A DNA stretch of 45,510 bases, from the IMG/VR virus record IMGVR_UViG_3300033489_000513. One strand, given 5' to 3'. Each line of letters begins with the position of its first letter. The first letter of the stretch is position 1. Position numbers and translations under genes: made by a program. The notes under the pieces are model-generated. The model was not told where the DNA came from and did not search any database. It saw only the letters and a list, made by a program, of their open reading frames with translations. The DNA comes from a virus. Of the stretch, positions 5,754 to 38,504 are shown piece after piece.

Positions 5754-5760
5754 AATAGAT

Positions 5761-5913
5761 ATGAAAGAATTATTCTATTGTGAACGGTGTAAACTTTATT
5801 ATCCTCCCAATGAATATCATAAAAAAATTAAAAAATGTCCCCGTTGCCGTCTCCCTTTTGCAACAAAACTGGTTAGCGAAGAAGATTTGAAAAAAATGAG
5901 GGTCGTGATTTAA
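5761..5913 (+). CDS. Small zinc-finger protein
   Basis: CERC...CPRC; stop overlaps the next start codon. Confidence 0.6.
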   Translation: MKELFYCERCKLYYPPNEYHKKIKKCPRCRLPFATKLVSEEDLKKMRVVI

Positions 5914-6632
5914 TGTCAAAATATTCCCATCTCCCCATCATTTCCTATATCCCCGCATTAGATGAAGAAAGTGATATTGAAGGCGCTTGTCGGAATGCGC
6001 TTCAAATATGTTACCAACCAGATGATGAAGTTTATGTTCTCTTGGATCCTCGGACCAAGGATCGAACACGGGAAATTGTTGAGCAATTTCCTCAAATTAA
6101 GATTTATCTACAAGACCCAGATTTGGGGAACGCCACTCGCCATAATCGAGGATCCGATGAAATTACGTTCATCCATAATATAAATGAATTCTTGAAAACG
6201 GTTGTTCCTGAAGGTCATTGGGTGATGGTGATGGCGGGGGATGAACGATATGACCATCGCGATGCGGAGAAAATCCGTTTCTACATCGATCAAGCGGATG
6301 GATTGAATGCTAATGCTCTTATCTTCGAGATCGCGGATGTATTCCCTGATGAACGACAGCGCATAGCATATGAATCCGTCCCAGGGTTAATTCTCGCTCA
6401 TTTACGTTTCTTCAAATATCAAGAAGATTTTGCTTTTGGCACTCGCGCTCATGATGATATTGGAGATATGGGAACCCGAATTCGAGCGCGCACGGGACTT
6501 TGGTTTTATCATTTTGGAAATTTGAAGAAAACAACAGACTGGAACTGGTGGAGAAATTGGGATGGCGTGAATCTTACCAAGAAATATGTCCCGCTCGATA
6601 ATCCATTTAGCGATTGGAAAAGAGGAATTTAA
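5913..6632 (+). CDS. Glycosyltransferase family 2-like
   Basis: PALDEE...DPRTKDRT...GDER...YHFG; paralog of 9014 and 20809. Confidence 0.75.
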   Translation: MSKYSHLPIISYIPALDEESDIEGACRNALQICYQPDDEVYVLLDPRTKDRTREIVEQFPQIKIYLQDPDLGNATRHNRGSDEITFIHNINEFLKTVVPEGHWVMVMAGDERYDHRDAEKIRFYIDQADGLNANALIFEIADVFPDERQRIAYESVPGLILAHLRFFKYQEDFAFGTRAHDDIGDMGTRIRARTGLWFYHFGNLKKTTDWNWWRNWDGVNLTKKYVPLDNPFSDWKRGI

Positions 6633-6697
6633 AGTTCAAAGCAGTAGGAAGAGGTATTGTAATGATAGTTTAAGGACTGGAAGAAGAAGGTATTTAA

Positions 6698-7714
6698 ATG
6701 GTAAAAGAAAAACGAGAAGATGAGGCAGTATTTAAATTCGAGAGAGAATATAATGGAAACTTTAATACAATCGCAGCAGGACATTATACTACTACGGGAG
6801 GATTTGATTTTACTAAGATTCTGAATTGTAACCCTTCTCCTGATCCTGTTTATAATCTCCTCGCATCAAGCGAAGAGAAATTGATTCCGTGGTATAATCA
6901 TATCCGCAAGCGGAAAGGACCTATTACTTTAATGGTAATGCCAACCAATCGCTGTAATTTAAATTGCGATTTCTGCTCCAATTCCGCGCGAAATATGAAT
7001 GAAGAACTTTCTCTTGCCAAAATTCGATTAACCTTTCAAAATCTTCCTTCTCTCAAGGCTATAGAAATAACGGGAGGGGGGGATCCCTTGTGTCATCCTT
7101 TAATTGGAGATTTAATCCATGAAATTCTAATTAAAAAATTACAAGTAGGGTTGATTACGAATGGGATTTTATTAAAAAAAATCCAATATTACCTTCAAAA
7201 ATTACATTGGCTTCGGATTTCATTGAATGGAATTATTGATAGCAAGCAAAAGGTTCCTTTCGAGATCATTCCCCTTCAGCTTTATACGGGCACAACTTAT
7301 ATTCTCCACGAGAAATCCCCTCCCGATTATCTGGATCAAATCAAGGAAATTTTAACGGCAAATCCTATACTTCAATATTGTAAAATTTGTGGAGATACAC
7401 GCAAATCTTCCCATTCAGATAGAATCGAAATTCGGGGAGAGAAAACCTATTTCTATGACCGAGAATTCCACGATGGAAATAATATACCCTGTTATTTAGG
7501 TTCCATCAAACCCGTTCTCGCGCCTGATGGGAGGTTTTATCCTTGTTCCAATCTCGTTCTAAAAACGGGTGCATATGAAGCGGGAGATTCCATCTCTCTC
7601 GAAGATATATGGAATTATAAACCTGTTGTTTGTACTTGTAAATCTTGCTTCCTTTGGAAGCGAAATGAAGTGGTTTCCAAACTGCTCATTGATCGTTCGG
7701 TGAATTTTGTGTAA
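6698..7714 (+). CDS. Radical SAM protein with SPASM/twitch-like C-terminus
   Basis: CNLNCDFC, TGGGDP, ITNG, DGRFYPC. Confidence 0.9.
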   Translation: MVKEKREDEAVFKFEREYNGNFNTIAAGHYTTTGGFDFTKILNCNPSPDPVYNLLASSEEKLIPWYNHIRKRKGPITLMVMPTNRCNLNCDFCSNSARNMNEELSLAKIRLTFQNLPSLKAIEITGGGDPLCHPLIGDLIHEILIKKLQVGLITNGILLKKIQYYLQKLHWLRISLNGIIDSKQKVPFEIIPLQLYTGTTYILHEKSPPDYLDQIKEILTANPILQYCKICGDTRKSSHSDRIEIRGEKTYFYDREFHDGNNIPCYLGSIKPVLAPDGRFYPCSNLVLKTGAYEAGDSISLEDIWNYKPVVCTCKSCFLWKRNEVVSKLLIDRSVNFV

Positions 7715-7990
7715 ATGACCCCCGCTTTTAAGCGGGGGCTTGCCACTGACGGACGCAACGCAAGCATTTACTACCATCTGTTTCCACACCAAAAAGGTTA
7801 GAACTATGCGCGAAACTCCGAGTACCGAGCTACAAGAACGGCAGGATCCTCCACAAGTCCTGCCCCCTTCGGCAGAACCGTTGAATGCCGCGAGTCTACA
7901 AACCTGTGGCAACCCCACAGAGGACTCTATGCTTGGTATTCCTTTGGGATGTGGGTATCACTCCCGCGAGGGAGCCAGAATATCTGGGCA
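7691..7990 (+). ncRNA. Putative omegaRNA (guide from the 5' flank plus scaffold); boundaries approximate
   Basis: About 280-nt GC-richer region between the element end and the PLMP motif, the canonical omegaRNA position. Confidence 0.65.
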
Positions 7991-9013
7991 CGCCGTGTTT
8001 GTGGTAGGAGTTGATGGAACCCCCTTAACTCCAACCACGAGTGCAAAAGCAAGGAAGTTACTAAAAGGAAAACAAGCGAAACCGATCTGGAATAGATTTG
8101 GACAATTTGGATTGCGGATGCTCGTGAAGACGGGTACGATAACCCCCAACACAATATTAGGGGTAGACTTTGGAACCAAGTTTGAAGGATACGCCGTAGT
8201 CACGGGTAAAGAGAACAACCTCGCCGTAATGTGGAAATTGCCAGATAAGAAAAATATTGTTCGGAAATGCGAGGAGCGAAGGCAGCTCCGCCGCGCGCGG
8301 CGGTTCCGGAATTGCAGGCGGAAGCAATGCCGATTCAGTAATCGCGACAAAAAAGGATTCATTGCACCTTCGCAATTAGTGATCATATATAGCCGCCTGA
8401 AGGCAATTTCGGAATTTCTCAAGTGCTATCCTATAAAGATTGTTGCTATCGAAGACGTAAAATTTAATCACGCCAAGTATCGTTGGGGAAAGAACTTCTC
8501 AACTATTGAAGTTGGGAAGACGAAAATCTACGAATATATTCACGCTCGGGCGTTCTTCCAAATGTATAATGGATACGATACGCCCGACATCCGCGAGACC
8601 TATGGATATAGGAAATCCTCAAGCAAGAATGCGGAAGTTTTTACTTCCCATTGTTCGGATGCACTCGCGATGGCAGTAGATGCATCCTGCAAGCAATACG
8701 TTCCCGAAGGATCTTTCATCGTAGTAGATGACACGTATCGTTCCATCCGTCGGAAACTGCACGATTCACAATTTAGCAAGGGCGGGATACGATACAAATA
8801 TTCAACAGGGAATTTCCGAGGAATACGGAAGGGAACAATGTGTGCATTTGGACAAATTGTCGGTGGAACACGAAATAGTGCATGGATTCGTAATAAAGAC
8901 AACAAGAGAGTTGGAAAAACAATGGCAAAGATCAACTGGTTATCTCATCATTTTAAATACGTGCGACCAATTTCTTCCCCGCTTAAAAGTGGGGGTTCCC
9001 GTGGAGGATTTTT
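7711..9013 (+). mobile_element. IS200/IS605-superfamily IsrB (OMEGA) element, non-autonomous
   Basis: Left end GTAAATGACCCCCGCTTTTAAGCGGGGGCTTG hairpin; right end CCCCGCTTAAAAGTGGGGG hairpin followed by ATGA; no tnpA. Confidence 0.85.
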
Positions 9014-9017
9014 ATGA
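7995..9017 (+). CDS. isrB: IsrB RNA-guided nickase (RRXRR family, no HNH); true start probably near GTG 7995 rather than 7740
   Basis: PLTP (PLMP domain), GVDFG (RuvC-I), RRQLRRARR bridge helix, IEDVKF (RuvC-II), SHCSDA (RuvC-III); no HNH between RuvC-II and RuvC-III. Confidence 0.85.
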   Translation: MFVVGVDGTPLTPTTSAKARKLLKGKQAKPIWNRFGQFGLRMLVKTGTITPNTILGVDFGTKFEGYAVVTGKENNLAVMWKLPDKKNIVRKCEERRQLRRARRFRNCRRKQCRFSNRDKKGFIAPSQLVIIYSRLKAISEFLKCYPIKIVAIEDVKFNHAKYRWGKNFSTIEVGKTKIYEYIHARAFFQMYNGYDTPDIRETYGYRKSSSKNAEVFTSHCSDALAMAVDASCKQYVPEGSFIVVDDTYRSIRRKLHDSQFSKGGIRYKYSTGNFRGIRKGTMCAFGQIVGGTRNSAWIRNKDNKRVGKTMAKINWLSHHFKYVRPISSPLKSGGSRGGFL

Positions 9018-9754
9018 AAGATTTTCCAAAAGTCCCTTTTGGTTTCACTGTTGCCTTGAATGAAGAAGAATGTATTGAAGGTTGGGTTCGGCAGGCAATG
9101 GATTTATGTGAAAAAGTTGCAGTGTATGTGGATCCCACTACAAATGATAAAACTGTTGAAATTCTCCATCATCTCCAATTAGAAAGTAAATATCAAGATC
9201 GATTAACCATTGGCGTTCAAGATCGCGCTCTGGGGAATGATGATAAATACCATCCAGGAACTATCCATATTTTTCACGTAAATCAAACGATGATTATTAA
9301 GAAATACGTGAAAGTAGGGACTTTTTTCTATTATCTGGATGTTGACGAGCGCATTAATCCATTTCAATATGGATTACTTGCTAGTGCCTTAACAGAAGCT
9401 CAGGAAAATGGAGCACAAGCCGTTCTTTCTGGCGCAAAATATGAATTTTATCCAGATGAAGAACATATCGTAAATTGGGGGTTTCCCGTTAATCAATATA
9501 TCTTTTTATTAAACGATGGAAAAATTGAACGAGACCCAAGTGCTCATGGAACATTCAATCTCAATCCCCCACTAAATTGTTGGGTAAGCAAAGTCCCAAT
9601 CTATCATTTTTCCCGCGTGAAAAAATCCCAAAAACCGTTCAAGTGGTGGGATGATTTGCCAAGTTCAGATTACGTGAAAATGCGCCAGAAAATTGGACGA
9701 ATAGATACAATCCCCTTTCATAATCGCATCCCCAATTGGAGGACGATGAAGTGA
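9014..9754 (+). CDS. Glycosyltransferase family 2-like
   Basis: ALNEEECI...DPTTNDKT...LDVDER...YHF. Confidence 0.75.
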   Translation: MKDFPKVPFGFTVALNEEECIEGWVRQAMDLCEKVAVYVDPTTNDKTVEILHHLQLESKYQDRLTIGVQDRALGNDDKYHPGTIHIFHVNQTMIIKKYVKVGTFFYYLDVDERINPFQYGLLASALTEAQENGAQAVLSGAKYEFYPDEEHIVNWGFPVNQYIFLLNDGKIERDPSAHGTFNLNPPLNCWVSKVPIYHFSRVKKSQKPFKWWDDLPSSDYVKMRQKIGRIDTIPFHNRIPNWRTMK

Positions 9755-10590
9755 ATTCTCTTCTCTTTCCCCCAAAATTTAAACTCGGAAAAGAATGGTC
9801 TCTCGTTCTGATTCATTATAACCAGAATGAACGAATCCCGATCTCGTTGAAATATTGGCGGGAACAAAGTATTCCTCCCACGGAAATTATCCTTTTGGAT
9901 GATGGGAGTTTGATTAAACCAGATTTACACGCACAAGGAAGAGAATCTATTTCTGTCTTTCATCTCGAACATACTGGGAATATTGGAGCAATATTGAATA
10001 AGGGAATTGACGCAACTCATACTCCAATCTTTATGACTGCTGAACCCAGTCTCCTGCCAGTAGGAAAATATTTCGCGGAAAAACAACTCGCTCGTTTGGA
10101 AAAGGGGAGTTTTCATATTCCCATTTATGCCATCACTTCTTCTTTACCAATGTTGGATATTGGGAATATTGATGCTTTCGATCATACTTTCGGACAGAAT
10201 CAAAGAACCTCCACTCGTTTTGGTGTGTGGAATATACCTGATCTTCAGACTCCAAGGAAGATAGAAGGTATGTGGTATCCCGTTGAAGGGCATTTTACCG
10301 CAAAAGCGGATTTCCTGCGATATAATGAGAAGTATACTTGTTGGGGGTTTTATGATCTCGACCTCGCCGTCCGATATTATCTGAAGGGAATCCAGATTTT
10401 CACTCAAGATGAAAGTGCCATATGTCATTGGAATCATCCCCGCATAGGTAATTGGTATGATCGCGCCAAAACCCAACCCCTTTTCGATTTTTGTAAGCGA
10501 TATTACGAAGCATATAAGATCACCACTTTAGATAAACAAACTGAAAACAAAATCTGGCAGGAATATTGCGATGTCCACCAAGCTGCTTGA
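9751..10590 (+). CDS. Glycosyltransferase family 2 with GT7-like C-terminus
   Basis: IHYN...LLDDGS...WGFYDLDL...HWNH; GTG start overlaps the upstream stop; paralog of 19255. Confidence 0.75.
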   Translation: MNSLLFPPKFKLGKEWSLVLIHYNQNERIPISLKYWREQSIPPTEIILLDDGSLIKPDLHAQGRESISVFHLEHTGNIGAILNKGIDATHTPIFMTAEPSLLPVGKYFAEKQLARLEKGSFHIPIYAITSSLPMLDIGNIDAFDHTFGQNQRTSTRFGVWNIPDLQTPRKIEGMWYPVEGHFTAKADFLRYNEKYTCWGFYDLDLAVRYYLKGIQIFTQDESAICHWNHPRIGNWYDRAKTQPLFDFCKRYYEAYKITTLDKQTENKIWQEYCDVHQAA

Positions 10591-11500
10591 AAATCCATTT
10601 GTTTCCAATGCCGCGAAACTAATGGGGAACATTGATCGTTTGGCGAAATTCAAGGAAACGGGAGAATTATTTCCCATCACCCTTGATATTGGTCCCACGG
10701 GTCGCTGCAATCAAAATTGCCCGTTTTGTTCCGTGAAAAACCGGAATCGAAATGAAGACTTAAATCTTCAAGATGCTTTGTTAATTACTAAATATTACGT
10801 CCATTATGGTGTTAAAGGTATTGAAATGACTGGAGGGGGGGAACCCACACTTTGGCCGCATTTTGAAGAATTCATCGAAAAGATTTCTCAGGAACCTGTA
10901 AAAATTGGATTAATTACAAATGGGCGGTTGCTTCACAAATATTCTCCAGAATTCCTCCGTCATTTCACTTGGATTAGAGTATCTGTGAATGGTATTGATG
11001 AAGGGTGGGTACCAAACTTTGAAATCCCCCCCGAAGTCACCTTTTCCTTTTCTTATGTCTGGCATCGTGGGACTGAAGATGAAAAAACGAATGAACGATT
11101 AAAACAAGTTTTGGAGAAATGTCCAAACGCCAAAGCGTTGAAGATTCAAAAGGATGTATTTATCGACCAATTAAACCCTATTTCAATAAATCCTCTTACA
11201 AACTCCCGTGTTTTTATAGGAGATAAGGGAATTGAAACAATTCCCGCTAAATGTTTCATTGGGTGGCTCAAACCACATTTGAGCGCAGATGGAAAAATCT
11301 ATCGGTGTTCAACTTGTGCGTTAAAAGAACGAAAATTCACATCCGAATTTGTGATGGGAGATGTAGATCATCTTCCTCTGTTTGTTCCCGACTCGAAAAC
11401 ATTCAATCCTGCTCAGCATTGTGAACGATGTTTCTATACCGCCCAAAATGAGTTGGTTCAGAAAGTTATGAATCCAATCGAACATTCCGAATTTTTATGA
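10571..11500 (+). CDS. Radical SAM protein, paralog of 6698-7714
   Basis: CNQNCPFC, TGGGEPT, ITNG, DGKIYRC. Confidence 0.9.
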   Translation: MSTKLLENPFVSNAAKLMGNIDRLAKFKETGELFPITLDIGPTGRCNQNCPFCSVKNRNRNEDLNLQDALLITKYYVHYGVKGIEMTGGGEPTLWPHFEEFIEKISQEPVKIGLITNGRLLHKYSPEFLRHFTWIRVSVNGIDEGWVPNFEIPPEVTFSFSYVWHRGTEDEKTNERLKQVLEKCPNAKALKIQKDVFIDQLNPISINPLTNSRVFIGDKGIETIPAKCFIGWLKPHLSADGKIYRCSTCALKERKFTSEFVMGDVDHLPLFVPDSKTFNPAQHCERCFYTAQNELVQKVMNPIEHSEFL

Positions 11501-12648
11501 TAGAAGCACAAATTATTATTCCTCCATCCCCCTTTTTGACAGATGAGTTAGTATTTCCACAACTCGGTCCATTATATATCAAACGATTTTGTGAAGAACG
11601 ATCTCAAGGAAATATAAGGGTGGATATAATCCGTATTAATAGTAAGAAGAAAATTGATCCTTTTCTTCCTACTGGTTTTTCGTGTACAACCCCACAATAT
11701 GCTTTTGCTAAAAAGGCTCATATGATGTTTTATGATAAAACAATTGTCGGGGGACCACACTGCGCGCATTACGATGTTTCAAAGGATAAGTGGAATTTCA
11801 TAATCAAAGGGGACGGGTGCTTTCCGTTTTATGACATTCTCAACGGAAATCAACCCATAGAACAATATGACCCAGTTGATCAACTTCCATACCGCGATGA
11901 AAGCCTTCACGATTATAAATACTACCTCGATGGCAATCCAACAACGGTTATGATGACTGCAAGGGGCTGTCCAAACAACTGTTATTTCTGTGAAGATGCG
12001 AAGAAAGCAGTGAGATTGAAGAGCATAGGCATAGTCAAAAAAGAACTGAAAGAATGTGTGGACTTAGGATTTAGCGGGATTATGTTTTTTGATGATCTCT
12101 TTTGTATTAATCTGTCTCGCGTGAAGAAACTCTGTGACATTATTAAACCTTTCAAAATTAAATTCCGGTGTTTCGCGCACGCGCGTAACTTTTCTCGTGA
12201 AATGGCTCAACTCTTAAAAGGGGCGGGGGTTATAGAGATCGGATTTGGCGCAGAACACGCAGACCAACGAATTCTTGATTTAATTAATAAAAAAACAACT
12301 GTTAAGCAAAATTATGATCTTGTGAAAACTGCCCACGAATTTGGCATTCGTGTCAAAGCATTCACGATGTTGGGCTTACCTGGGGAAAATAAAGTATCAG
12401 TAGAGGCATTACGGAAGTTCATAACAACTTCTGGCATTGATGATTATGATGTAACCGTATATTATCCCTATAGAGGCACATACATAGCAGATCATCCAAA
12501 CCAATTCGATTTACAAGTTGAGAAAAATGGTAGTGGATTTTATAAAGGAAGAGGAGGAATTTCAGAATATACAGTTCGAACTTCCGCGTTAACATCTCAA
12601 CAAATACAAATAATACAAAGAGAATTATTGTTATATAAGAAAAGATAA
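11497..12648 (+). CDS. B12-binding radical SAM protein (class B methyltransferase-like)
   Basis: IVGGPH, TARGCPNNCYFC, FFDDLF, AGVIEIGFGAE, MLGLPGE, PYRGT. Confidence 0.9.
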   Translation: MIEAQIIIPPSPFLTDELVFPQLGPLYIKRFCEERSQGNIRVDIIRINSKKKIDPFLPTGFSCTTPQYAFAKKAHMMFYDKTIVGGPHCAHYDVSKDKWNFIIKGDGCFPFYDILNGNQPIEQYDPVDQLPYRDESLHDYKYYLDGNPTTVMMTARGCPNNCYFCEDAKKAVRLKSIGIVKKELKECVDLGFSGIMFFDDLFCINLSRVKKLCDIIKPFKIKFRCFAHARNFSREMAQLLKGAGVIEIGFGAEHADQRILDLINKKTTVKQNYDLVKTAHEFGIRVKAFTMLGLPGENKVSVEALRKFITTSGIDDYDVTVYYPYRGTYIADHPNQFDLQVEKNGSGFYKGRGGISEYTVRTSALTSQQIQIIQRELLLYKKR

Positions 12649-12656
12649 TTCAAATA

Positions 12657-13173
12657 TAGTTTATCCTTATAGATAGAGAATAATTATTTTCTCCAAGCAA
12701 TCCGAGCATAGCAAATGCGGTTCACCCCTATGAGTAGGGAATAATTACGCCAAATCCAATCTCGACACATCCCGCTTCCGGTTCACCCCTATATGTAGGG
12801 AATAATTAAGTCAACAGTTTCTTTCGCTACTGGCGGATCTGGTTCACCCCTATATGTAGGGAATAATTCACTATATCAAGAGTTCAATTTATGGCTCCCG
12901 CGGTTCACCCCTATATGTAGGGAATAATTATCGCAATGAGCGAGCTTATAGAACGTGCCATCGGTTCACCCCTATATGTAGGGAATAATTCTTCGTGAGG
13001 GGGGGTATTTCCAATTTTTCCACGGTTCACCCCTATATGTAGGGAATAATTGGGGCGATTCTCCACCGCTTGCCCAACTTTATCGGTTCACCCCTATATG
13101 TAGGGAATAATTAGAAGAGAATGCATTAATTTTGGCAGCGATTACGGTTCACCCCTATATGTAGGGAATAATT
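12657..13173 (-). CRISPR. Type I-E CRISPR array: 8 conserved 29-bp repeats plus one degenerate trailer repeat, 8 spacers of 32 bp
   Basis: Repeat CGGTTCACCCCTATATGTAGGGAATAATT at 12718, 12779, 12840, 12901, 12962, 13023, 13084 and 13145 (61-bp period); degenerate copy at 12657; minus strand ends in AACCG like type I-E repeats. Confidence 0.97.
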
Positions 13174-13234
13174 ACTGGAAAATGTTTGTAGAATTGAGTA
13201 ATCCATTCAAGATTCTGCGGGTGTATATCTATGT

Positions 13235-13876
13235 CTAAGAAGGGCCAATTAAGAGCAATCCCAACCCGAATGCTTTCCCCGGCCCAATTCCTTTTTGGAG
13301 AGTTTGAAAAAATTGATCCAAATCGGTTATTCGTAATGTACCTTCAAAATCAACTGTATTTAAAATTATCTTTGCTTCATTTGTCTGGGGATTGCGTGGT
13401 CTCCATCCATCCATTGAAATAACCACAGTTACAAGAGAAAATCCTTTTTGTTGGGACTGCTTTTGTAACCAATTTATTTGATCCTCTCTTTTTAAAAGGG
13501 GTTTTCTCTTCCGATTAACATCATAAATTGTGGGGTTTGCCCGTAAAGTAAAACGAAGGATTTTGTTGGGGGTTATTTGCTTCAATTGAGAAGATATTTC
13601 CTTTACCATAAATCCACCCATATAACCAGGATAATGTGAGATAAGTTGTTCCCACTTTGGTTTTTCGGTAGATTGAGCCCAAATAATGGAACGATTTCCA
13701 TTAGGAATAACTCGAAATAAAACATTGAAATATGCCCGCGCCATTCCTTCTACATTTTTGTTTATAACAGTAGGGAAAGCAGACATTATTGTTCGATGTA
13801 ATTCTTTCATATTACCCATATCTCTTTGAGATTGGGGATTTTCGACACGTAAAAGCAATTTCGATAAATAAATCAT
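13235..13876 (-). CDS. cas6e: Cas6e (Cse3)
   Basis: YLSKL, LH, LFRV, FTLRANPT, GIGPGKAFGLGLL. Confidence 0.95.
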   Translation of the reverse strand: MIYLSKLLLRVENPQSQRDMGNMKELHRTIMSAFPTVINKNVEGMARAYFNVLFRVIPNGNRSIIWAQSTEKPKWEQLISHYPGYMGGFMVKEISSQLKQITPNKILRFTLRANPTIYDVNRKRKPLLKREDQINWLQKQSQQKGFSLVTVVISMDGWRPRNPQTNEAKIILNTVDFEGTLRITDLDQFFQTLQKGIGPGKAFGLGLLLIGPS

Positions 13877-14535
13877 AGTATTTTCGCCTTGGGTATCGGA
13901 ACTTGAAATCTTCGAATATTGCGGAACGAATATAATCGCGATATGGGGGTATTTGTAATGCGATCTTGGAGGAGATTTTCACCAAGAGGATCTTCGATGA
14001 TACATTTAAGTGTTTTTGGAATTGGGAAAGAACTTTGCCAAGGATGATACCGTATTGCTTCTTCAAGGGAACTATATTTCGGGGATAATTCTTCAAAGGG
14101 AGGGCGAGTAGGGGGACAACTCTTTCTGCCTAAATAAAGAATCCATTTTGGATTTTGTAATGCTTGAGCACATTTTGTTAATAATTCAAAATTTCCCGCA
14201 AATATCGCGAGAAATGAACCATCGAAAATATATTTTCTCTTAGAAACAATTGTCTCGTCTCGGATTTTTCTTTTACTATTTAGCGATCCTTTAATAGTTT
14301 GATAGTCGAGAGAAATATCCCCCTCTCTTTCAACGCGGATAGCAAGGGTTAAGTTTAAATCTAACTCAAGAATTTGGGGATCGTTGTGATGATAACCAAG
14401 GGCACAAGCAAGCAATCCAATAAGGCCAGACTTTGTTGGTTCCAAATTTGTATTTCGGAAATCATAACGAGTATAAAGACCCCATGATTGCATTGGAGCT
14501 TCTAATCGAAGTATAAGGAAAAGGGGATTAGACAT
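13873..14535 (-). CDS. cas5e: Cas5e (CasD), normal length, no HNH
   Basis: LRLEAPMQSWG, PTKSGLIGLLACALG, LYLGRKSCPP. Confidence 0.95.
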   Translation of the reverse strand: MSNPLFLILRLEAPMQSWGLYTRYDFRNTNLEPTKSGLIGLLACALGYHHNDPQILELDLNLTLAIRVEREGDISLDYQTIKGSLNSKRKIRDETIVSKRKYIFDGSFLAIFAGNFELLTKCAQALQNPKWILYLGRKSCPPTRPPFEELSPKYSSLEEAIRYHPWQSSFPIPKTLKCIIEDPLGENLLQDRITNTPISRLYSFRNIRRFQVPIPKAKIL

Positions 14536-14553
14536 AAAAAATCCTCCTTAGAT

Positions 14554-15789
14554 TTAGAAATATGAAAGAATCACTTCCAACAAATCATTCACATTTTCAT
14601 ATTTGGAAGCATTGGAAGGCGGGGGAAGACCTTGACCAACTGATGTGGTAAACCAAAGGCGGTGTATAGTTTCGAGGGAAAAACACTTTGTCAATTCATC
14701 TGCGTGTTTAATTAATGTTGCGATACTGTTTTCGATGAGTTTTCCCGATGCCTCAATTGGATTTGAAAACGCATTTGCATAACTAAGGGAACCTTTCTTC
14801 GGTCGGATCTCAATCAGGATCGCGTCAGGTAGTGAAAAGGCGGCAAAGGCATTTTGTTTCCCACTTGGATTGGTATAGATAATTGCTTTTAAACACGCTT
14901 TAATACTTAATTTTAAAATTTCCTTTAAATTTGTTTTAAAATGGGGGTTAAGATTGACACGAAGTTGATCCGTATCTATCGAAAAATACTTGTAAAAACA
15001 AGCGCTATTATAGGGGATATGACCTGCCATAGCAAATCCCTTTGTATCTAAATCATCAATTGCTGAGAAGTAATCAAATTCCAGTTCAATGGGATTTGTG
15101 GAGATTGCATGAGCTACTTGTAACGCGGCTTTAACATCAGGAAAAGCATCTGAAGTCGTCATACGTCCCAGAAGCGCGATGTCTGGCGTTAAGTAGGGTT
15201 TCAATTTCTTGACACTTTTAATTTTAGTTTGTAGTAGTTTCAAATCCGTTGCTTCAAGGTTTGGATCTATCTTTTCCTTTGCATTTTTCTTTGCGGTTTT
15301 CGGCGTGATATAATTTTCGGGATGATTAATGGCATCACAAAACACATCCGCATTCAAGACTACCTCTTGATCTGTAAAGAAGATTCGTTGTTTCGTGATA
15401 TGTTTCTGAGTAATGTCCTCCGTTTCTTCATTTGATTCCGTCTCACTATTTTCGGGATCTTCTTCCTTTGAAGGGGATTGGGAAGTTGTCCCAAACGCAG
15501 CGACCTTCTGAGCTGCAATCTCCGCTAATTGTGGGGAAACCTTCCGCCGGTTTAGTTCAGCTCTCACAAGTTCGGGGAGGGTTCTGCTCGCGATTCCTAA
15601 GGGGATACCCGCCAGAATCTGCTTGAACTCTGGAGAAACACGAATATTCCTTTTGAGACATTGACTGGAAATTCGTGCGCGTTGAACGCCTCCAAAGATG
15701 GCTGTCTTTGGATTATTGTTTTCATCTCGATTTAAATTACTCGGAGCGTAGTTTTCTAAGATATGGATCTCGATTAACATAGATTTCAT
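14554..15789 (-). CDS. cas7: Cas7 (Cse4)
   Basis: PSNLNRD, GGVQRARISSQCLKR, DIALLGRM, QVAHAIST, PSGKQNAFA. Confidence 0.96.
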   Translation of the reverse strand: MKSMLIEIHILENYAPSNLNRDENNNPKTAIFGGVQRARISSQCLKRNIRVSPEFKQILAGIPLGIASRTLPELVRAELNRRKVSPQLAEIAAQKVAAFGTTSQSPSKEEDPENSETESNEETEDITQKHITKQRIFFTDQEVVLNADVFCDAINHPENYITPKTAKKNAKEKIDPNLEATDLKLLQTKIKSVKKLKPYLTPDIALLGRMTTSDAFPDVKAALQVAHAISTNPIELEFDYFSAIDDLDTKGFAMAGHIPYNSACFYKYFSIDTDQLRVNLNPHFKTNLKEILKLSIKACLKAIIYTNPSGKQNAFAAFSLPDAILIEIRPKKGSLSYANAFSNPIEASGKLIENSIATLIKHADELTKCFSLETIHRLWFTTSVGQGLPPPSNASKYENVNDLLEVILSYF

Positions 15790-15792
15790 TCC

Positions 15793-16515
15793 TTATTTTT
15801 TTCCATTAAGATATGAGTTTAACCATTTAGATTGTACGTGATGATCTGATGCATTCCATTCAAGGAGATCTTGATTTAATTGATTATAATCCACACAACA
15901 ACTTTTTTTTAGGGCGAGTTTTTCAACAAAATAAGCAAGATTTCGTAATAACATTCCATTCCGTTCACTACGAATCATAAATCGTATTTTTGTTGTATGT
16001 ATATCACAAATGCCAAGAAATCGAATAATTATTCCAAAATTCTCGGCAATTCTTCTATTTCTATTAGGGAAGTTTATTCTTGACAAAAGGGAGGTCATTT
16101 CTTGTGCCGAAAAGATTTGAGTAGAAGGAGATTGAGATAAAACTCTTGCAACATCAAAGCGAGTTTTTAAGATTGTCTTGCAATTGAGATTTATTTGTCC
16201 TTTGGAGTTTAATTCTTGGGGCGAACCAATGTATTCATATAAGAGAGGAAGACAATCCCGATGCCGTGTTTCACTTCCACACCCTTGAAATTGTTGTGTG
16301 AGCTTTAAGAGATTAGCTTCAATCGAAGGCGCGGGAATACGTTTTAATATTTTGACGTACCCATAATTTGCAGTTTGAAAATCTTTACGTCTTTGTTCAA
16401 CATCTTGAGATTCCCCAAGTTTAAGAGGACCGTTTTCTCCTAATTCCATTATATATGTATCTTGGGGACTATCAGTTTTTGTTTGTTCATCTTCAAGGAA
16501 TTTTTCATTTTCCAT
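15793..16515 (-). CDS. cas11: Cas11 (Cse2) fused to an N-terminal GIY-YIG-like (T5orf172/MUG113) domain
   Basis: Located between cas8e and cas7; C-terminal VDYNQLNQDLLEW...VQSKWLNSY fits Cse2; N-terminal TYIMELGENGPLKLGESQDVEQRRKDFQTAN fits T5orf172. Confidence 0.8.
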   Translation of the reverse strand: MENEKFLEDEQTKTDSPQDTYIMELGENGPLKLGESQDVEQRRKDFQTANYGYVKILKRIPAPSIEANLLKLTQQFQGCGSETRHRDCLPLLYEYIGSPQELNSKGQINLNCKTILKTRFDVARVLSQSPSTQIFSAQEMTSLLSRINFPNRNRRIAENFGIIIRFLGICDIHTTKIRFMIRSERNGMLLRNLAYFVEKLALKKSCCVDYNQLNQDLLEWNASDHHVQSKWLNSYLNGKK

Positions 16516-17893
16516 TTATTTCTACATCCTTTATTCGTTGATATTTTGCCAAAATTAAGGGATAGATTTGATTTTGTTTTAAAAACTTAGATAAGCATTC
16601 AATTCCAATGTCCTTTATTTGGTCTGGATTTAAAGAATCAATATTATTGAAGAATGGAATCAACTTTTCCCAAAAAGATGAAATAATGTTCTTTTTCAAT
16701 TGATTCCTTAAAACGGAAGTATATTTCGCGAGATCTGAAAGATAAATGGATTTTATTATAAGATTAATTGTATTTGAAGCGATAGAGATCATATTTTGTA
16801 TTGAGGAAAAAGACTTCAATGAAATCTTTTCCTTTACTTCATCATAAAATTTCATGTCTCCATCTGTAATTAAACCATATACTTGAATGGAAGAATTTTT
16901 CTTGTTGATTCCTTCCATAAGAATTGATTGAGTTATGAAGGGGGGAAGTTCAGGTTTCTTCAGACAAAGTTGAACCCACACATTTGGGGAATAAGGATTG
17001 GGATAACCACTAAAGTTAGGACGAAAAGGTTTCTTTTTTACATATGCAACGTTTGAATCCTTCCACAATTCTTTCTTCTTATTGCGACCCCAACCAGCAC
17101 GAAAAATTACGTTTTTAATTAAGAGAGGGACATTCTTACCAGAATATTCACAAGTCCCTCCTGTTGAAGGAAAGAGATGTACAATACGGGGTTGCCAAGT
17201 TAATCCTTCTAAAATCATAGCAGAATCAAATGACTTCTTAGAAACACATACATCCGAACGCCAAAAGGGAATACCCATTAAGGAAGAAGAAGAGATAAAT
17301 GCATAAACATTAAACATTAATGTTTCAAATAGATTATGTCCTTTTAACATAAAATACCAAGGCGGCATTCCATTTATACTTGGGGAATTGCCTTTACCGC
17401 CAGATGTAATAAACGCAGGAAAACTACATAACGCCTGAGCGCAAATTTCTGGAGAAAGAGATTGAGGATTCTTATGAATGAAAAAAGAAGAGTTTATGCC
17501 ATGAGGAAAATTTTGAATTAAAATTGAAACGGAGTGACATTTCTTCTCGTCTAAGTCAGGGGTTTGGTAGAAAGGATGCTTATTATCAAATAAATCGAAA
17601 CGAGATTTCCATAAAGCGATATAATCTTGAATTGTCTGTAAATCAAATTTCTTTTGTTCAATAATTGATTTTACTGAAGTTATCGTTATAGAGAATGCAT
17701 CAAGAATAAATGCAAAAAGAAATCGATACATTCCAAATTCAAAAATGGGGGAAGAATCATAAATCTCCCGAAGATTATATGCATTTTCCAAAATCTCCAA
17801 AATACTATAGACTTGTACTTGATTTTGGAAGTTCATAGCAGGAATCCATTTCTCAAACAATAAATTATAGGAAATGGGAAGATACTTACACAT
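16505..17893 (-). CDS. cas8e: Cas8e (Cse1)
   Basis: YNLLFEKWIP, RFDLFDNKHPFYQ, GHNLFETL, LTWQPRIV. Confidence 0.92.
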   Translation of the reverse strand: MCKYLPISYNLLFEKWIPAMNFQNQVQVYSILEILENAYNLREIYDSSPIFEFGMYRFLFAFILDAFSITITSVKSIIEQKKFDLQTIQDYIALWKSRFDLFDNKHPFYQTPDLDEKKCHSVSILIQNFPHGINSSFFIHKNPQSLSPEICAQALCSFPAFITSGGKGNSPSINGMPPWYFMLKGHNLFETLMFNVYAFISSSSLMGIPFWRSDVCVSKKSFDSAMILEGLTWQPRIVHLFPSTGGTCEYSGKNVPLLIKNVIFRAGWGRNKKKELWKDSNVAYVKKKPFRPNFSGYPNPYSPNVWVQLCLKKPELPPFITQSILMEGINKKNSSIQVYGLITDGDMKFYDEVKEKISLKSFSSIQNMISIASNTINLIIKSIYLSDLAKYTSVLRNQLKKNIISSFWEKLIPFFNNIDSLNPDQIKDIGIECLSKFLKQNQIYPLILAKYQRIKDVEINGK

Positions 17894-17914: not shown

Positions 17915-17927
17915 TATTTAAATCTTT
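17915..17927 (-). promoter_or_regulatory. Putative archaeal BRE/TATA promoter of the cas operon
   Basis: AAAGATTTAAATA ending 21 nt before the cas8e ATG; no Shine-Dalgarno. Confidence 0.5.
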
Positions 17928-17974
17928 GTGAGAAAGAATATAAAATAAAAGGTGATCGGAAATCCGCATTGCCT

Positions 17975-18063
17975 CGGTTCACCCCTATAGTAGGGAATAA
18001 TTTGGCAAGGATATTGCATCGCAGATAACAACATCGGTTCACCCCTATATGTAGGGAATAATT
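17975..18063 (-). CRISPR. Mini CRISPR array: 2 repeats, one 32-bp spacer
   Basis: Same repeat at 18035-18063 (perfect) and 17975-18002 (1-nt loop deletion). Confidence 0.93.
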
Positions 18064-19254: not shown

Positions 19255-20130
19255 TCACAACAATTTGATGATATTTTGCTTCGCATATTTATCACAATTA
19301 TTTCTATATTTAAGAAAATTTTCCATTTGAAAGGTTTGGTAGAAATCCTTGTCAGTCCTTGGGTGAGTGATGTGATACATTACACAATCCTCAAATCCAT
19401 AGGCGGCATTATTCGCGAGTTGCCAGCGGAAGGTATAATCGAGGTCGTAATATCCCCGTCCCCGATAATCTTCGGAATATCCTAAAAAGTCTTCCGTGTA
19501 CATCATCGCACCTTTTTCAGGAGCATAGGGACAAAGAATAGAGTCCCCGCCTTCGGGATGCTTGGGCGGGAATTTCTGGCGAGCGCTGGGGAGAAATTTT
19601 TCACATCCCATCATCATTTCATCCATCGTGAGTGGACGGGTAATTGTACTTCCCCAGCAGGAAACTTTTCCCATTTCAAGTGTGGCATATCCACAACGAG
19701 CACACCGACCCATCTTGGGAAAATAATTCCCAAACGAAACAAGAGGGTAAGGAATATTCCAATCCGTATCCACCGTCCGAGGGATAATTCTCGTTCCTCG
19801 TTGGATGCGCCGGAGCTGGAGATTTGCAAAGTCTAACGCGGGAATGTTAAAAGGTTCGGCGGGAACGAAAAGGGGAGTTTTAACTTCCTTAATGCCTTTG
19901 TTGAAAAGTTTCCCTAAATTCATGGTGCGGATAGGTTCTTGGATAAAAGTTACTCTTCTTACTACATGGTATGGTAAATGGGTGATACTGCCATCATCCA
20001 CGACTATGATCTGGAGTGGAGGAGGATTCTGCATAAACCAAGCGAATACGCATCGCCTGAGCGTGGAACTAGTATTATAATGGATGAGAACTACCGAATA
20101 ATAATGATCCTCTTTCAAATGAAAGACCAC
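19255..20130 (-). CDS. Glycosyltransferase family 2, paralog of 9751-10590
   Basis: LIHYN, VVDDGS, PAEP, GYYDLDY, YHITHPR. Confidence 0.75.
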   Translation of the reverse strand: MVFHLKEDHYYSVVLIHYNTSSTLRRCVFAWFMQNPPPLQIIVVDDGSITHLPYHVVRRVTFIQEPIRTMNLGKLFNKGIKEVKTPLFVPAEPFNIPALDFANLQLRRIQRGTRIIPRTVDTDWNIPYPLVSFGNYFPKMGRCARCGYATLEMGKVSCWGSTITRPLTMDEMMMGCEKFLPSARQKFPPKHPEGGDSILCPYAPEKGAMMYTEDFLGYSEDYRGRGYYDLDYTFRWQLANNAAYGFEDCVMYHITHPRTDKDFYQTFQMENFLKYRNNCDKYAKQNIIKLL

Positions 20131-20663
20131 GCTTCCAACGAAATCGCATTCGCTAAGTCATAGAGTGATTTCTTGATGAAAATATCTATCCCGAAGAGGT
20201 TCTGCATTTGATATTGAACATCAAGTAGACGGGGATATTGGGGATGAACGCCAATGCAGAGTCTGATTTTATCTCCTCTCATCGCGCGCATACTATGAGC
20301 ACCTAACTCAAAAAGCACGATGGGTTGAATTTGATCTTTATCAAACCAGAAAGAGATTATGTTTGCTTTTCGCAACATCTCAAACTCCCATTTGACTTGG
20401 GCGGAGGCTGCATTCTTGTCATGTATGGGAAAATTCGCCCGGCGCGGATTTATCACGATCAATCTTCTGGCCATCGGGAGTTTTTCCAGATATTTCCGCA
20501 GGATTTCCACAAGTTCAGTTTGCCATTCCGAACATCCAGTAATTCCTCCCGCGAGAAAAACGATGGGAATTTTCTGCTCTTTATATTCCAAAGGAATTTG
20601 GTTAGGTGCTTCCACGTAAATAAGTTGACCCATTAAATTAACCTCTTTTATTCTCCTTACCAC
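20115..20663 (-). CDS. Nucleoside 2-deoxyribosyltransferase-like protein
   Basis: VFLAGGI...WQ...INPRR...QVKWE...FWF...PIVLFELG. Confidence 0.8.
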   Translation of the reverse strand: MVRRIKEVNLMGQLIYVEAPNQIPLEYKEQKIPIVFLAGGITGCSEWQTELVEILRKYLEKLPMARRLIVINPRRANFPIHDKNAASAQVKWEFEMLRKANIISFWFDKDQIQPIVLFELGAHSMRAMRGDKIRLCIGVHPQYPRLLDVQYQMQNLFGIDIFIKKSLYDLANAISLEAWSFI

Positions 20664-20808
20664 GGCTCTCTATCAGAACATTGTTTGGAATTTTTAGGAG
20701 AGAAAGGGCACGGTTTCAAGTAATTGAATCCTCCAGAATCTTCTCTGCCCCCCTCTTTTCGAGGAGGGCGGGAACAATATCCATTCTTGCGGAGATATGG
20801 ACAGCTCA

Positions 20809-21462
20809 TTAGATACTCTCCTGCCAATTTTTAAAGGGAATACTGGTAGAACAAGTCTTATCTGTAATATTCAACCCGACCCATTTTTTATTTGGATTCT
20901 TTTTCAAATACCCGAAATGCCAGAAGGGAAACTGGCTGGAAAGTGTATTATATAAACCTGTTTCCGCGCCGGGGATATCTGGATAAAATCGAAGATTTGT
21001 CGTCCGCCTGAAAATCTTCTTGTGAACGAATTGGAAGTTGGGAACCTTCTCAAACGCAAGACGGTGGAATATATCGGGATAAAGATCCACGATACCAAGA
21101 GAAATGGCATCATAATTTGAAGAGGAGGCAAGATCCACCAATCTTCGAATGGGCTCGACTTGGGCGGGATGTAATCGTTCGTCCGCATTCAACCACAAAC
21201 ACCATTTTAATTCTTCAACATAAGTTCGCAAGAATTGGTGAATTGACTCCCAAAGATCACTTTTTTGGAGATCGATAATAACCCACGGACAATCCTTCTT
21301 CAAGATATCAATGGTTTCATCAGATGTTTTTGGATCCACTAACGCATAAACTTCATCGCAAAAAAGGCGGATGTTCTTGGCCCATCCTCGAATACATTCT
21401 GCTTCATCCAAAATAGGCGCAAATCCAATGAGATGTTCATGTCCTAAAGTTGTCATTTGCAT
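20809..21462 (-). CDS. Glycosyltransferase family 2-like, paralog of 5913 and 9014
   Basis: PILDEAECI, DPKTSDET, LNADER, WHFGYLK. Confidence 0.75.
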   Translation of the reverse strand: MQMTTLGHEHLIGFAPILDEAECIRGWAKNIRLFCDEVYALVDPKTSDETIDILKKDCPWVIIDLQKSDLWESIHQFLRTYVEELKWCLWLNADERLHPAQVEPIRRLVDLASSSNYDAISLGIVDLYPDIFHRLAFEKVPNFQFVHKKIFRRTTNLRFYPDIPGAETGLYNTLSSQFPFWHFGYLKKNPNKKWVGLNITDKTCSTSIPFKNWQESI

Positions 21463-21640
21463 CTTTCCCCCATAACAATATTTGCTTACAGAATGGACAA
21501 ATATAAGAATCTATATAACCCTTCTTAGATTTCACGAGCAATTTTTCTCCATCAATTGAAAATCCACATTTATGACATGGAATACTCACAACGCGAATGA
21601 TGACATTATTAATTGGTTTAAGTTTCCGTTTTAGGCACAT
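21437..21640 (-). CDS. Small zinc-finger protein
   Basis: CHKC...CPFC. Confidence 0.5.
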   Translation of the reverse strand: MCLKRKLKPINNVIIRVVSIPCHKCGFSIDGEKLLVKSKKGYIDSYICPFCKQILLWGKDANDNFRT

Positions 21641-22763
21641 TTTGTTCTTTCTCCTTTAGATCTTCAATAGGATGCCATTCGGGAGGTGTGACTCCCACGA
21701 ATTTGTTGAAAAAGACTCCTAATTGTTTCATCCGTGGGACGATTGTATGTCCTTCATTACTCCATCCCACATTATCGGGCTCCTTCCATTCCGCGCCTTT
21801 CACGACCAATTCCCACCCTTTACGGGCGATATTGATATCATAAGCATTACATTTTGCGATGGCATCTTCGGGGGTTCCATCGAAGAAGCGACAATTGACT
21901 CCATCCCGGAAACCCATTAGATAATGATCTGGCGTTTGAATCGTGACAAGCATAGCTCCTAAAGAGGGAACTTCCACATCACGGAAATTCGCGCCTGCTG
22001 CCGTGGGAAGATTTAACCCTACCTTTGAACTTTGAAGGAGTTTGACATAAGCATCAGGACCTAACCGCCCTTGGCCTGCTTCAATCTTTCGCTGGTCAGG
22101 AGGAATAATACGACCCTTCTCATCCATACTTTCACCCAACCAATGTCCTTCAAATCCTGACATATCTTTTTTGAGTGTTTGGGCAATCATTCTCCGCTGG
22201 GCATATGCTTCGAAAAGCGAATAGATTTCTCCCGCGAAGGAAGCTTTGATCGGGCGCGGGTTATCGGGGAATACTGCATTCTTCGGCATCACGCCAGGAA
22301 CACAATGAGGAAGATATCCAAGTGCATTAATATTGGGATAATCCCTCTTTACAATTCGTTTTATGGCATCTGTCGAACTTAATGCAAAAGTTGTGGGTTG
22401 GGGACAGACTGGTAACATCGCTTCCGTACAATAGAAGAAATATGGAATTGGCGATTTGCCCGTTGGAAGTGTCCAATCTTGAACGTGGAAGACGAAATCA
22501 AAATCTATTCCTATCAAGTCGAGGAGAGTTTCTAGTTTCACCATACGGACTTGGGTTTGATGTCGCCCAAAAGGACCATTATATTGCATATTCCGGGTGG
22601 GAATGTGGGCAATGTCAAGATCAGGCGCTCCCCGTCCGACATGGAACATTTGGTATCCCCACTGTCGAAACGCGCGAGCATATGCACGGGAAGGATTCCA
22701 CAAATTATCTCCAATGAAAAGAACTCGCGGGGGACGTGGTTTTAAAACAATGTCAATTGGCAA
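21618..22763 (-). CDS. Glycosyltransferase, CgeB/Glyco_trans_1_2-like, paralog of 4659
   Basis: SKVGLN, NFRDVEV, GAMLVT, GFRDGVNC, IARKG. Confidence 0.75.
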   Translation of the reverse strand: MPIDIVLKPRPPRVLFIGDNLWNPSRAYARAFRQWGYQMFHVGRGAPDLDIAHIPTRNMQYNGPFGRHQTQVRMVKLETLLDLIGIDFDFVFHVQDWTLPTGKSPIPYFFYCTEAMLPVCPQPTTFALSSTDAIKRIVKRDYPNINALGYLPHCVPGVMPKNAVFPDNPRPIKASFAGEIYSLFEAYAQRRMIAQTLKKDMSGFEGHWLGESMDEKGRIIPPDQRKIEAGQGRLGPDAYVKLLQSSKVGLNLPTAAGANFRDVEVPSLGAMLVTIQTPDHYLMGFRDGVNCRFFDGTPEDAIAKCNAYDINIARKGWELVVKGAEWKEPDNVGWSNEGHTIVPRMKQLGVFFNKFVGVTPPEWHPIEDLKEKEQNVPKTET

Positions 22764-34171: not shown

Positions 34172-34177
34172 AGAAAT

Positions 34178-36107: not shown

Positions 36108-36193
36108 TTAGATCACTTCATACCTTGGTGTTATTCTACCTCTGCAGATAACACCATCTCCACAATTAAAATACATTAAATGTCCCATATTTA

Positions 36194-38310: not shown

Positions 38311-38504
38311 AAAAACACTTTCCAGAGTATTACTTTCGTAACTTACAGATCATCGGCGTTTGGCATCGATTACACGTTCTCTCAAGAGTGGGAGCAATTA
38401 ACCCACTTCTACATTTAAGGCGTTGCCCACATTCTGGATTTGGGCAATATCCAATATATTCTGGCATCTTTATTTCCTCCATTTTACGATTCTTTTATTA
38501 ATGT

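Follow-up and report, generated by a model that had tools for sequence, protein, structure and literature searches.

We analysed 45.5 kb of a virus contig of about 145 kb (recorded length 145,402 bases; IMG/VR record IMGVR_UViG_3300033489_000513); this stretch of 45,510 nucleotides (nt) is called the window below, and everything counted in the window refers to these 45.5 kb only. On its minus strand, between a CRISPR array of nine repeats and a mini-array of two repeats, lies an intact cas8e-cas11-cas7-cas5-cas6e operon (13235-17893). The Cas11 of this operon, a protein of 240 amino acids (aa) which we call P0001, carries at its N-terminus a domain of the T5orf172/MUG113 type (GIY-YIG superfamily). 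The reading which we favour, and to which we give a moderate probability, is that of a type I-E Cascade without Cas3 whose effector nuclease is built into Cas11 by means of this domain; the cleavage itself is something we infer.

A sequence-only reading of the window had proposed a GIY-YIG-type nuclease at the N-terminus of the Cas11-position protein, at about 16230-16460. The domain is indeed there: it covers residues about 20-95 of P0001 and maps to 16231-16458 on the minus strand. Its identity was established through homologues. When 1.84 billion representative proteins were searched exhaustively with HMMER, a fusion homologue was found, P0003 (232 aa, E 4e-4), aligned across residues 18-235 of P0001, and the two proteins align over their full length in a pairwise BLASTP comparison (E 2e-14). 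P0003 stands above the Pfam gathering cut-offs for both MUG113 (29.9 vs 22.3 bits) and T5orf172 (23.9 vs 20 bits); besides, it matches Cse2, and its gene comes after a Cse1 gene. A search seeded with P0003 led to two further fusions, P0004 (245 aa) and P0005 (240 aa), for which T5orf172, MUG113 and Cse2 are all present in the precomputed Pfam lists. In addition, residues 20-71 of P0001 are 37% identical to a stand-alone T5orf172/MUG113 protein, P0006 (pairwise E 1e-10). The T5orf172 membership of P0001 is one of transitive homology, because the hidden Markov model (HMM) of the family misses P0001 while the fusion homologues pass. PHROGs and PDB-sequence searches with residues 1-110 of P0001 returned nothing, and a word-indexed protein search with P0001 returned only the protein itself.

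The predicted structures point the same way. The full-length AlphaFold model, built from four sequences, has a predicted local distance difference test (pLDDT) score of 50 (57-82 in the N-terminal domain, below 50 in the Cas11 part); the best structural matches of its N-terminal domain were already GIY-YIG nucleases, which we took as a first hint only. For a second model, limited to residues 12-102 and based on six sequences, pLDDT is 79 and the predicted template modelling (TM) score 0.70; its strands and helices follow each other as beta-beta-alpha-beta-alpha-alpha, which contains the order beta-beta-alpha-beta-alpha expected of the GIY-YIG fold. When this model is compared with 48,161 PDB chains, the top three matches are GIY-YIG nucleases: Slx1 7cq2_A (Z 5.4, 81 residues aligned, root mean square deviation 3.4), Slx1 6seh_C (Z 4.9) and At-HIGLE 7wme_A (Z 4.9). 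EF2693, I-TevI and the N-terminal domain of AtGRXS16 are found lower down the same list, and the best Foldseek match is the GIY-YIG protein BH0048 (E 0.27). For the ESM Atlas model, all eight of the listed structure rows and the top named feature matches carry T5orf172/MUG113, and an 88-aa cluster of the Atlas gives a TM score of 0.80 (normalised by the target) over residues 14-97. Because the modest fold scores, insufficient alone, combine with the sequence evidence, we regard it as settled, on sequence and predicted structure, that the N-terminal domain of P0001 is T5orf172/MUG113, from the homing-endonuclease-type branch of the GIY-YIG superfamily. No PD-(D/E)xK family is found among the Pfam, PDB or Atlas matches; the system is therefore not a Cas11-VRR-NUC variant.

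The Cas11/Cse2 part of P0001 covers residues about 101-240 (15796-16215, minus strand). Its direct Pfam Cse2 match is weak (residues 178-235, E 2.9e-4, or E 1.2e-4 in a separate scan; 21.7-23 bits vs a cut-off of 24.6). Compared by hhalign with the unfused Cas11 proteins of related type I-E loci, this half gives a probability of 98.5% and E 1.8e-15, and a profile search matches the PDB Cse2 3wa8 at E 0.002. Hence the C-terminal half is plainly Cse2-like, as had been proposed. The first part of a canonical Cas11 is not recognisably aligned and consists here of about 50 divergent helical residues.

We then considered the residues of the putative active site in an alignment of seven sequences, namely the four fusions, two stand-alone T5orf172 proteins and the nuclease Odn of phage ICP1 (Gp88, HQ641347). 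Y21, K32, G34, R42, L57 and E66 (P0001 numbering) are invariant. The motif is therefore present with its Tyr in strand 1, its K-[ILV]-G in strand 2, its Arg in helix 1 and its Glu in helix 2, at the position of Odn E180 and I-TevI E75; E66 of P0001 is aligned with Odn E180. The sequence-only reading had stated that Tyr, Lys-x-Gly, Arg and both Glu are kept while His and WF are altered, which is accurate residue by residue (Y21, K32-L-G34, R42, E66 and E82 are kept; LH has become LL, and WF has become TR). The motif is canonical in P0003 and P0005, and in P0004 its glycine alone is changed (REWF). For Odn, DNA cutting was shown both in vitro and in vivo, and it is lost with the mutation E180A (Barth et al., PMC8263062); Glu180 is the one residue of a T5orf172 nuclease for which cutting has been shown to depend on it. 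Slx1 and HIGLE, the structural neighbours of the domain, cut branched DNA, a property which, by analogy, would fit an action at an R-loop.

The other genes of the operon are those of a canonical type I-E Cascade, in the same order as in related loci, and all are on the minus strand. The large subunit cas8e/cse1 (16505-17893, 462 aa) matches PF09481 at E 4.9e-43. The fusion gene (15793-16515), assigned by the alignment of P0001 to P0003 and to the other fusions, starts with an overlap of 11 nt on the end of cas8e. It is followed by the backbone subunit cas7e (14554-15789, 411 aa; PF09344 E 1.1e-83, TIGR01869 E 1.7e-68), by cas5e (13873-14535, 220 aa; PF09704 E 7.5e-42, TIGR01868 E 2.9e-39) and by the gene of the pre-crRNA (precursor CRISPR RNA) endonuclease cas6e (13235-13876, 213 aa; PF08798 E 6.5e-49, TIGR01907 E 2.5e-25), which has a His at residue 27, in ELHRTIM. 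Since the starts and stops overlap or sit within 18 nt of each other, we take the five genes to form a single operon. A candidate promoter, a TATA-like T/A-rich run followed by TTCTCACAA, lies at 17926-17950 (minus strand), 33-57 nt upstream of the cas8e ATG. The complete operon with CRISPR repeats on both sides, which the sequence-only reading had described, is thus confirmed, with Pfam and NCBIfam E values from 4.9e-43 to 1.1e-83 for four of its genes. The viral proteins resemble those of the archaeal locus of P0005, called L002 and described below, with 32% identity for Cas8e, 41% for Cas7 and 37% for Cas6e; over the Cascade subunits the range is 27-43%.

No cas3, cas1 or cas2 gene was found among the open reading frames (ORFs) of the window that were scanned. 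We also built a Cas3 HMM from eight related Cas3 proteins; it gives more than 1100 bits on relatives and nothing on the six-frame translation of the window. The absence of the three genes nearby, as first noticed, therefore holds for the window by ORF scans, and for cas3 by HMM as well.

No cas3 gene was found in the archaeal locus L002 either, which lies on a contig of 50.8 kb (GCA_040961015.1) covered from 1957 to 50814 (48.9 kb) in four overlapping pieces. This locus consists of cas8e, the fusion gene of P0005, cas7, cas5, cas6e, an array of 58 repeats (57 spacers), cas2 and cas1. Neither the precomputed Pfam annotations nor the Cas3 HMM detect a cas3 gene in these 48.9 kb; hence Cas3, the signature of type I systems, is lacking both there and in the window. 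The recognised variants without Cas3, Cas5-HNH and Cas8-HNH, are counted as type I all the same. Two unknown proteins of 717 and 428 aa, encoded beside the locus (piece L005), were considered as Cas3 candidates and excluded by NCBIfam and by the Cas3 HMM. That L002 combines a large uniform array with an adaptation module, while the 48.9 kb covered show no Cas3, argues for an effector nuclease inside Cascade.

To the search for the same fusion in other loci the answer is three further proteins, one of which, P0005, belongs to this complete Cas3-less locus with an adaptation module. The four fusion proteins (P0001 and P0003-P0005), found among about 15 billion proteins, are 232-245 aa long and 26-67% identical, stem from a small number of distinct contigs and samples, and have the same continuous two-domain frame; each fusion gene is translationally coupled to cas8e, and cas7 comes after it. 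No further fusion was found in IMG/VR viral contigs, GTDB genomes or JGI metagenomes. Among 50,697 phage and 72,556 plasmid records, tblastn found no fused form, and the N-terminal domain of P0005 matched only stand-alone genes annotated as 'GIY-YIG nuclease family protein'. The viral N-terminal domain is without a 3-residue insertion common to P0003-P0005, and, as far as the sequences go, the viral and archaeal fusions may stem from one fusion event or from two.

The two loci can be compared with their relatives. A scan of GTDB by means of Cas7, with a single genome for each species, gave 80 loci, in which a T5orf172-domain HMM matched 0 ORFs. The closest Cas7 group contains 11 loci (39-45% identity) of the ordinary type I-E, with an unfused Cas11 of 170-229 aa. 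Nine of these have enough flanking sequence, and in all nine an ORF of 843-942 aa matching the Cas3 HMM is found directly upstream of cas8e; the eight such ORFs which were scanned against NCBIfam all match Cas3, at E 2.7e-96 or lower. A second and larger group, 60 of the 80 loci, has a Cas5 of 365-418 aa with an HNH Pfam match in each of the five loci scanned for it, and an intact Cas3 in none. The viral Cas5, with 220 aa and the Cas5 domain alone, is of normal length and has no HNH insertion, so that the viral system is not a Cas5-HNH variant. In a quick maximum-likelihood tree of Cas7, the viral and L002 proteins pair together (support of 88 in the Shimodaira-Hasegawa-like approximate likelihood ratio test), within a fully supported group that contains Cas3-bearing systems and is separate from the HNH clade; both proteins have long branches in this tree, and its sampling is biased by the search patterns. 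Because the tree sets the T5orf172 systems outside the HNH clade, it suggests that the replacement of Cas3 was independent of that of the HNH lineage.

The Cas5-HNH loci of our scan (GTDB loci L019-L087) occur in many bacterial phyla, and one lies in a metagenome-assembled genome of Bathyarchaeia (L058). In two of them (L029 and L033) an ORF of 678-687 aa ending at cas7 has the look of a Cas8-Cas11 fusion. In a third (L072) the Cas11 ORF (9157-10011, plus strand) has 284 aa, with about 137 residues before the Cse2 domain and no Pfam match for them; this could be another Cas11 extension, or merely the effect of an upstream start codon.

The arrays of the window also belong to type I-E. In the main array (12657-13173, minus strand), 9 repeats, each 29 nt long, alternate with 8 spacers of 32 nt at a period of 61 nt; its outermost repeat (12657-12685) is degenerate and marks the trailer end. 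The repeat as transcribed from the minus strand, AATTATTCCCTACATATAGGGGTGAACCG, aligns with the L002 repeat. Repeats of 29 nt, spacers of 32 nt, a hairpin and an 8-nt handle ending in ACCG are together what is expected of type I-E. We read the array on the minus strand, like the cas genes: its repeat then has a type I-E-like handle of 8 nt, GTGAACCG, and aligns with that of L002, the degenerate repeat comes to lie at the trailer end, and two partial self-matches are flanked by AAG and AAA. Transcription of the array from the plus strand was considered and dropped on account of this handle, of the far-end position of the degenerate repeat and of AAG as a flank. The 61 nt between the cas6e stop and the first repeat (13174-13234, minus strand) are, by their position only, a presumed leader, or else a zone of read-through from the cas operon. 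The mini-array (17975-18063, minus strand), made of one repeat, one 32-nt spacer and one repeat with a 1-nt deletion, lies upstream of cas8e and is co-directional with it.

The two self-matches just mentioned concern the oldest guides, those of the trailer end. Each of them matches, at 23 of 32 positions, the radical-SAM gene of the virus itself which flanks the cassette (11497-12648); the two sites are 12220-12251 and 12359-12390, and their flanks on the side of the protospacer-adjacent motif (PAM) are AAG and AAA. Presumably, the two spacers fit exactly the radical-SAM allele of a relative. AAG may be the PAM, the sole hint being one AAG and one AAA beside these two imperfect self-matches. 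The L002 spacers have no match in the window.

The guide of the mini-array (spacer 18003-18034) gives another partial match, of 13 of its 14 PAM-proximal nt, at 36126-36157 (minus strand), with a GAG flank. The site is 19-50 nt upstream of the start codon of a C5 DNA methylase gene (35007-36107), and a promoter-type motif TTCTCACAA is found about 76 nt further upstream (36233-36241). The rough expectation for such a match is about 0.01 after correction for nine guides, in a test which was made post hoc. This guide could act as a cr-like regulatory RNA, binding without cutting, or the match could be due to chance.

In the type I-E Cascade of E. coli, Cas11 is present in two copies, placed along the path of the displaced strand. 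If the viral complex is built in the same way, the system could function as follows. Cas6e would cut the minus-strand transcript of the array into CRISPR RNAs (crRNAs) of 61 nt, each made of the handle GUGAACCG, a 32-nt guide and a hairpin. On each crRNA, Cas8e, Cas7, Cas5, Cas6e and two copies of Cas11 would assemble, and the complex would open an R-loop at a target flanked by the PAM. The nuclease domains tethered to Cas11, which would lie on the belly of the complex along the displaced strand, would then make a local nick or cut in the bound DNA, instead of shredding it processively as Cas3 does. For the virus, which has neither cas1 nor cas2 and a fixed set of 8+1 spacers, the most likely use would be an attack on related competing viruses; in the archaeal L002 the same effector would serve a normal adaptive system. 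All of this we infer, from the assembly, the stoichiometry and the joint action of the two nuclease copies to the cutting, the PAM and the biological role.

Several observations weigh against such a mechanism. Pfam gives no T5orf172 match for residues 1-110 of P0001 even at E 10, and the structural comparisons score modestly (Z 4.9-5.4; Foldseek E 0.27), at values which arrangements arising by chance can also reach. Exact targets for three guide seeds were sought in viral and metagenome contigs and none was found, so that no natural target or PAM was recovered. A nuclease borne by Cas11 is alone no proof of the replacement of Cas3, because some Cas11-PD-(D/E)xK loci keep Cas3; moreover, about 100 kb of the viral contig, and the host, lie outside the window, and a cas3 gene there is possible. 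Lastly, P0001 is the most divergent member of the fusions, with GSETR where the motif has GEWF and a Leu in place of the His of E..LH. Because of this divergence its nuclease activity, which the sequence makes likely, is not assured, and the viral copy could be inactive.

This last point leads to the most serious alternative, which we nevertheless hold to be unlikely, namely that Cascade only binds its targets: the T5orf172 domain would be catalytically dead, with a structural or DNA-contacting function, and the complex would silence its targets in the manner of type IV-A systems, through a block of transcription or replication. The loss of the WF of GEWF and of the His of E..LH, the failure of Pfam to detect the domain and the absence of an adaptation module from the virus all speak for this, and the partial seed-type match of the mini-array guide (13/14 nt, GAG) upstream of the methylase gene would fit a regulation. 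However, Y21, K32-x-G34, R42 and E66 are invariant even when stand-alone nucleases are included, E66 being at the position of Odn Glu180. Odn itself keeps the catalytic Arg and Glu and is able to cut DNA even though its helix 1 is without the His/Tyr (PMC8263062). The motif of the L002 protein, moreover, is canonical; its locus is an adaptive one, with 57 spacers and without Cas3 in the 48.9 kb covered, and such a locus can give immunity only by means of an effector nuclease.

A second possibility, to be taken as rather unlikely, accepts the cutting and gives it another purpose. The neighbouring gene is matched, in a diverged allele, by the two oldest guides, which makes homing conceivable beside competition between viruses; the cassette might be an RNA-guided homing element. 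The two guides would match the allele of the flanking radical-SAM gene in a relative and spare the virus's own copy (23/32; AAG, AAA). In a co-infected cell, a rival genome without the cassette would be cut by the T5orf172-Cascade at the radical-SAM site, and recombinational repair from the carrier would copy the cassette in. If true, this would be a programmable homing like that of introns and homing endonuclease genes, and would indicate a route by which Cascade could have gained a homing nuclease.

It is still less probable that a Cas3 encoded elsewhere, in the remaining ~100 kb of the virus or in the host, degrades the target in trans while the T5orf172 domain is an accessory in the generation of spacer precursors or in R-loop processing. 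Such a gene would have to be in the DNA beyond our coverage, which comprises, for the virus, a part of its contig or the host and, for L002, the first 1,956 bases of the contig and all else of the archaeal genome, and apparently active Cas3 proteins are indeed kept in some Cas11-PD-(D/E)xK loci (PMC12669027). Against this, the HMM finds no Cas3 in the 45.5 kb of the virus nor in the 48.9 kb of the archaeal contig; as cas3 is directly upstream of cas8e in all the close unfused relatives with enough flanking sequence, both fusion loci show a specific loss at this very place. Finally, viral genomes often contain T5orf172 genes, which are mobile (PMC10448857), but that a free-standing homing endonuclease gene upstream of cas11 only seems to be joined to it is hardly credible, as this is contradicted by the recurrence of one continuous frame in four fusions of separate contigs, each coupled to cas8e and followed by cas7, and as 15793-16515 contains no stop codon or frameshift.

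The remainder of the window is that of a head-tail virus-like genome, judging from its genes, which specify a portal protein (phrog_146, E 7e-9) and a head maturation protease as well as glycosyltransferases, radical-SAM enzymes and several DNA methylases. The CRISPR cassette is flanked in mirror orientation by alike clusters of glycosyltransferase and radical-SAM genes (4659-12648 on the plus strand, 19255-22763 on the minus strand). At least five DNA methyltransferase genes are clustered at 30647-39476 (minus strand), two of the N4/N6 type, two Dam-like (D12) and one C5, with a pair of TGT-like and radical-SAM genes downstream of them. This cluster suggests heavy DNA modification, which might also shield the DNA of the virus itself. 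It had been stated that no transposase genes are nearby. This must be amended, as two RRXRR genes (IscB/IsrB-type, OMEGA nuclease) are present, at 7740-9017 (plus) and 28742-29818 (minus). None of TnsB, TnsC and TniQ, the hallmark of CRISPR-associated transposons, is found among the ORFs of the window, which therefore does not hold such an element. With these RRXRR genes, the window holds three kinds of RNA-guided or homing-type nuclease.

In L002 the adaptation module is unusual as far as its sequence goes: Cas2 (L002 16914-18056, minus strand, 380 aa) has a C-terminal extension which includes a SWIM zinc finger, Cas1 (L002 18066-19232, minus strand) has 388 aa, and a gene for a DnaQ-like (RNase_T) exonuclease lies beside them (L002 19540-20088, plus strand). 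The contig also encodes a reverse transcriptase (piece L005 18769-20355), TBP (piece L007 19261-19632) and a small GTPase of the Arf/Ras/Roc type (piece L007 8183-8764). We take the contig to be archaeal because of the TBP gene and the Arf/Ras-type GTPase; it is possibly Asgard-like. A TniB-like ATPase is encoded about 8 kb upstream of the cas operon (L002 1-795, minus strand), with no TnsB or TniQ match among the genes in between; the region which holds the cas locus may be a mobile one.

If the T5orf172 domain of Cas11 is indeed the effector nuclease of a Cas3-less Cascade, then another nuclease superfamily, GIY-YIG, has been recruited to Cascade, which would strengthen the view that Cas3 was repeatedly replaced by mobile homing nucleases and would link CRISPR effectors with the biology of homing endonucleases. 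As Cas11 is expected twice per complex along the displaced strand, the geometry of the cut, whether a nick, a staggered double cut or a cut at two sites, could differ from that of the HNH forms, which might be of use in editing. The effector module is compact, its five cas genes occupying about 4.7 kb. The hosts of the system, an archaeal contig and a large virus-like genome, are unusual, and the system would extend the adaptation-free CRISPR weapons of viruses to class 1 without Cas3. A catalogue of rare variants could easily miss such a fusion, since we found four proteins among about 15 billion.

Nuclease-bearing Cascades as such are already known. Three have been described: HNH within Cas5 (type I-E), HNH on Cas8 (type I-F) and PD-(D/E)xK/VRR-NUC on Cas11 (type I-E) (Makarova et al. 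2025, PMC12669027; Altae-Tran et al. 2023, PMC10910872). Of these three only the HNH forms were shown to cut; in I-E and I-F Cascades, HNH domains replace Cas3 and cut DNA (PMC10910872, PMC12669027). T5orf172 and MUG113 are mentioned neither in these two articles nor in those of their supplements that were searched, where the sole mention of GIY-YIG is a UvrC annotation in one supplement, and a full-text search of the literature found no description of a fusion of T5orf172, GIY-YIG or MUG113 with Cas11 or with Cascade. Hence the claim that no GIY-YIG-Cas11 version had been described stands, within the literature searched, for the T5orf172 domain, but a nuclease on the Cas11 of type I-E is not new in itself; what is new here is the T5orf172 nuclease on Cas11.

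The closest of the known systems is Cas11-VRR (Altae-Tran et al. 2023), likewise a type I-E Cascade with a small nuclease domain on Cas11. Its nuclease is of the PD-(D/E)xK kind, with a fold and an active site unrelated to those of T5orf172/GIY-YIG. Its role was left undecided by the authors, and some of its loci retain an apparently active Cas3 (PMC12669027), whereas both T5orf172 loci for which the context is available have no cas3 in the DNA covered. Cas5-HNH is likewise a Cas3-less type I-E Cascade with a homing-endonuclease-type nuclease within a subunit, and its Cas7 is 32-37% identical to the viral one; precise cutting was demonstrated, and structures have been described (bioRxiv 10.1101/2024.07.22.604555; Zhang et al. 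2024). Its HNH domain, however, is in Cas5, with one copy per complex, while two copies of the T5orf172 domain are expected on Cas11. In the type I-F Cas8-HNH (PMC11459484, PMC11480323) a nuclease domain on a Cascade subunit takes the place of Cas3, as we propose here, but the subtype, the subunit and the nuclease family are different.

Other resemblances are found among viruses. Virus-borne CRISPR-Cas systems and mini-arrays likewise combine an effector and spacers without cas1 and cas2, plausibly aimed at competitors; the known type I systems of phages (e.g. the I-F system of ICP1) use Cas2-3, in contrast to the window, which is without Cas3 and has the fused nuclease. The Odn nuclease of ICP1 (Gp88; PMC8263062) belongs to the same nuclease family as the domain of P0001, is borne by a virus and is used against a competing genetic element, standing in for the CRISPR-Cas system of the phage. 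Odn is brought to its target by a protein DNA-binding domain (RepA_N-like), whereas the nuclease on Cas11 would be directed by a crRNA-guided complex.

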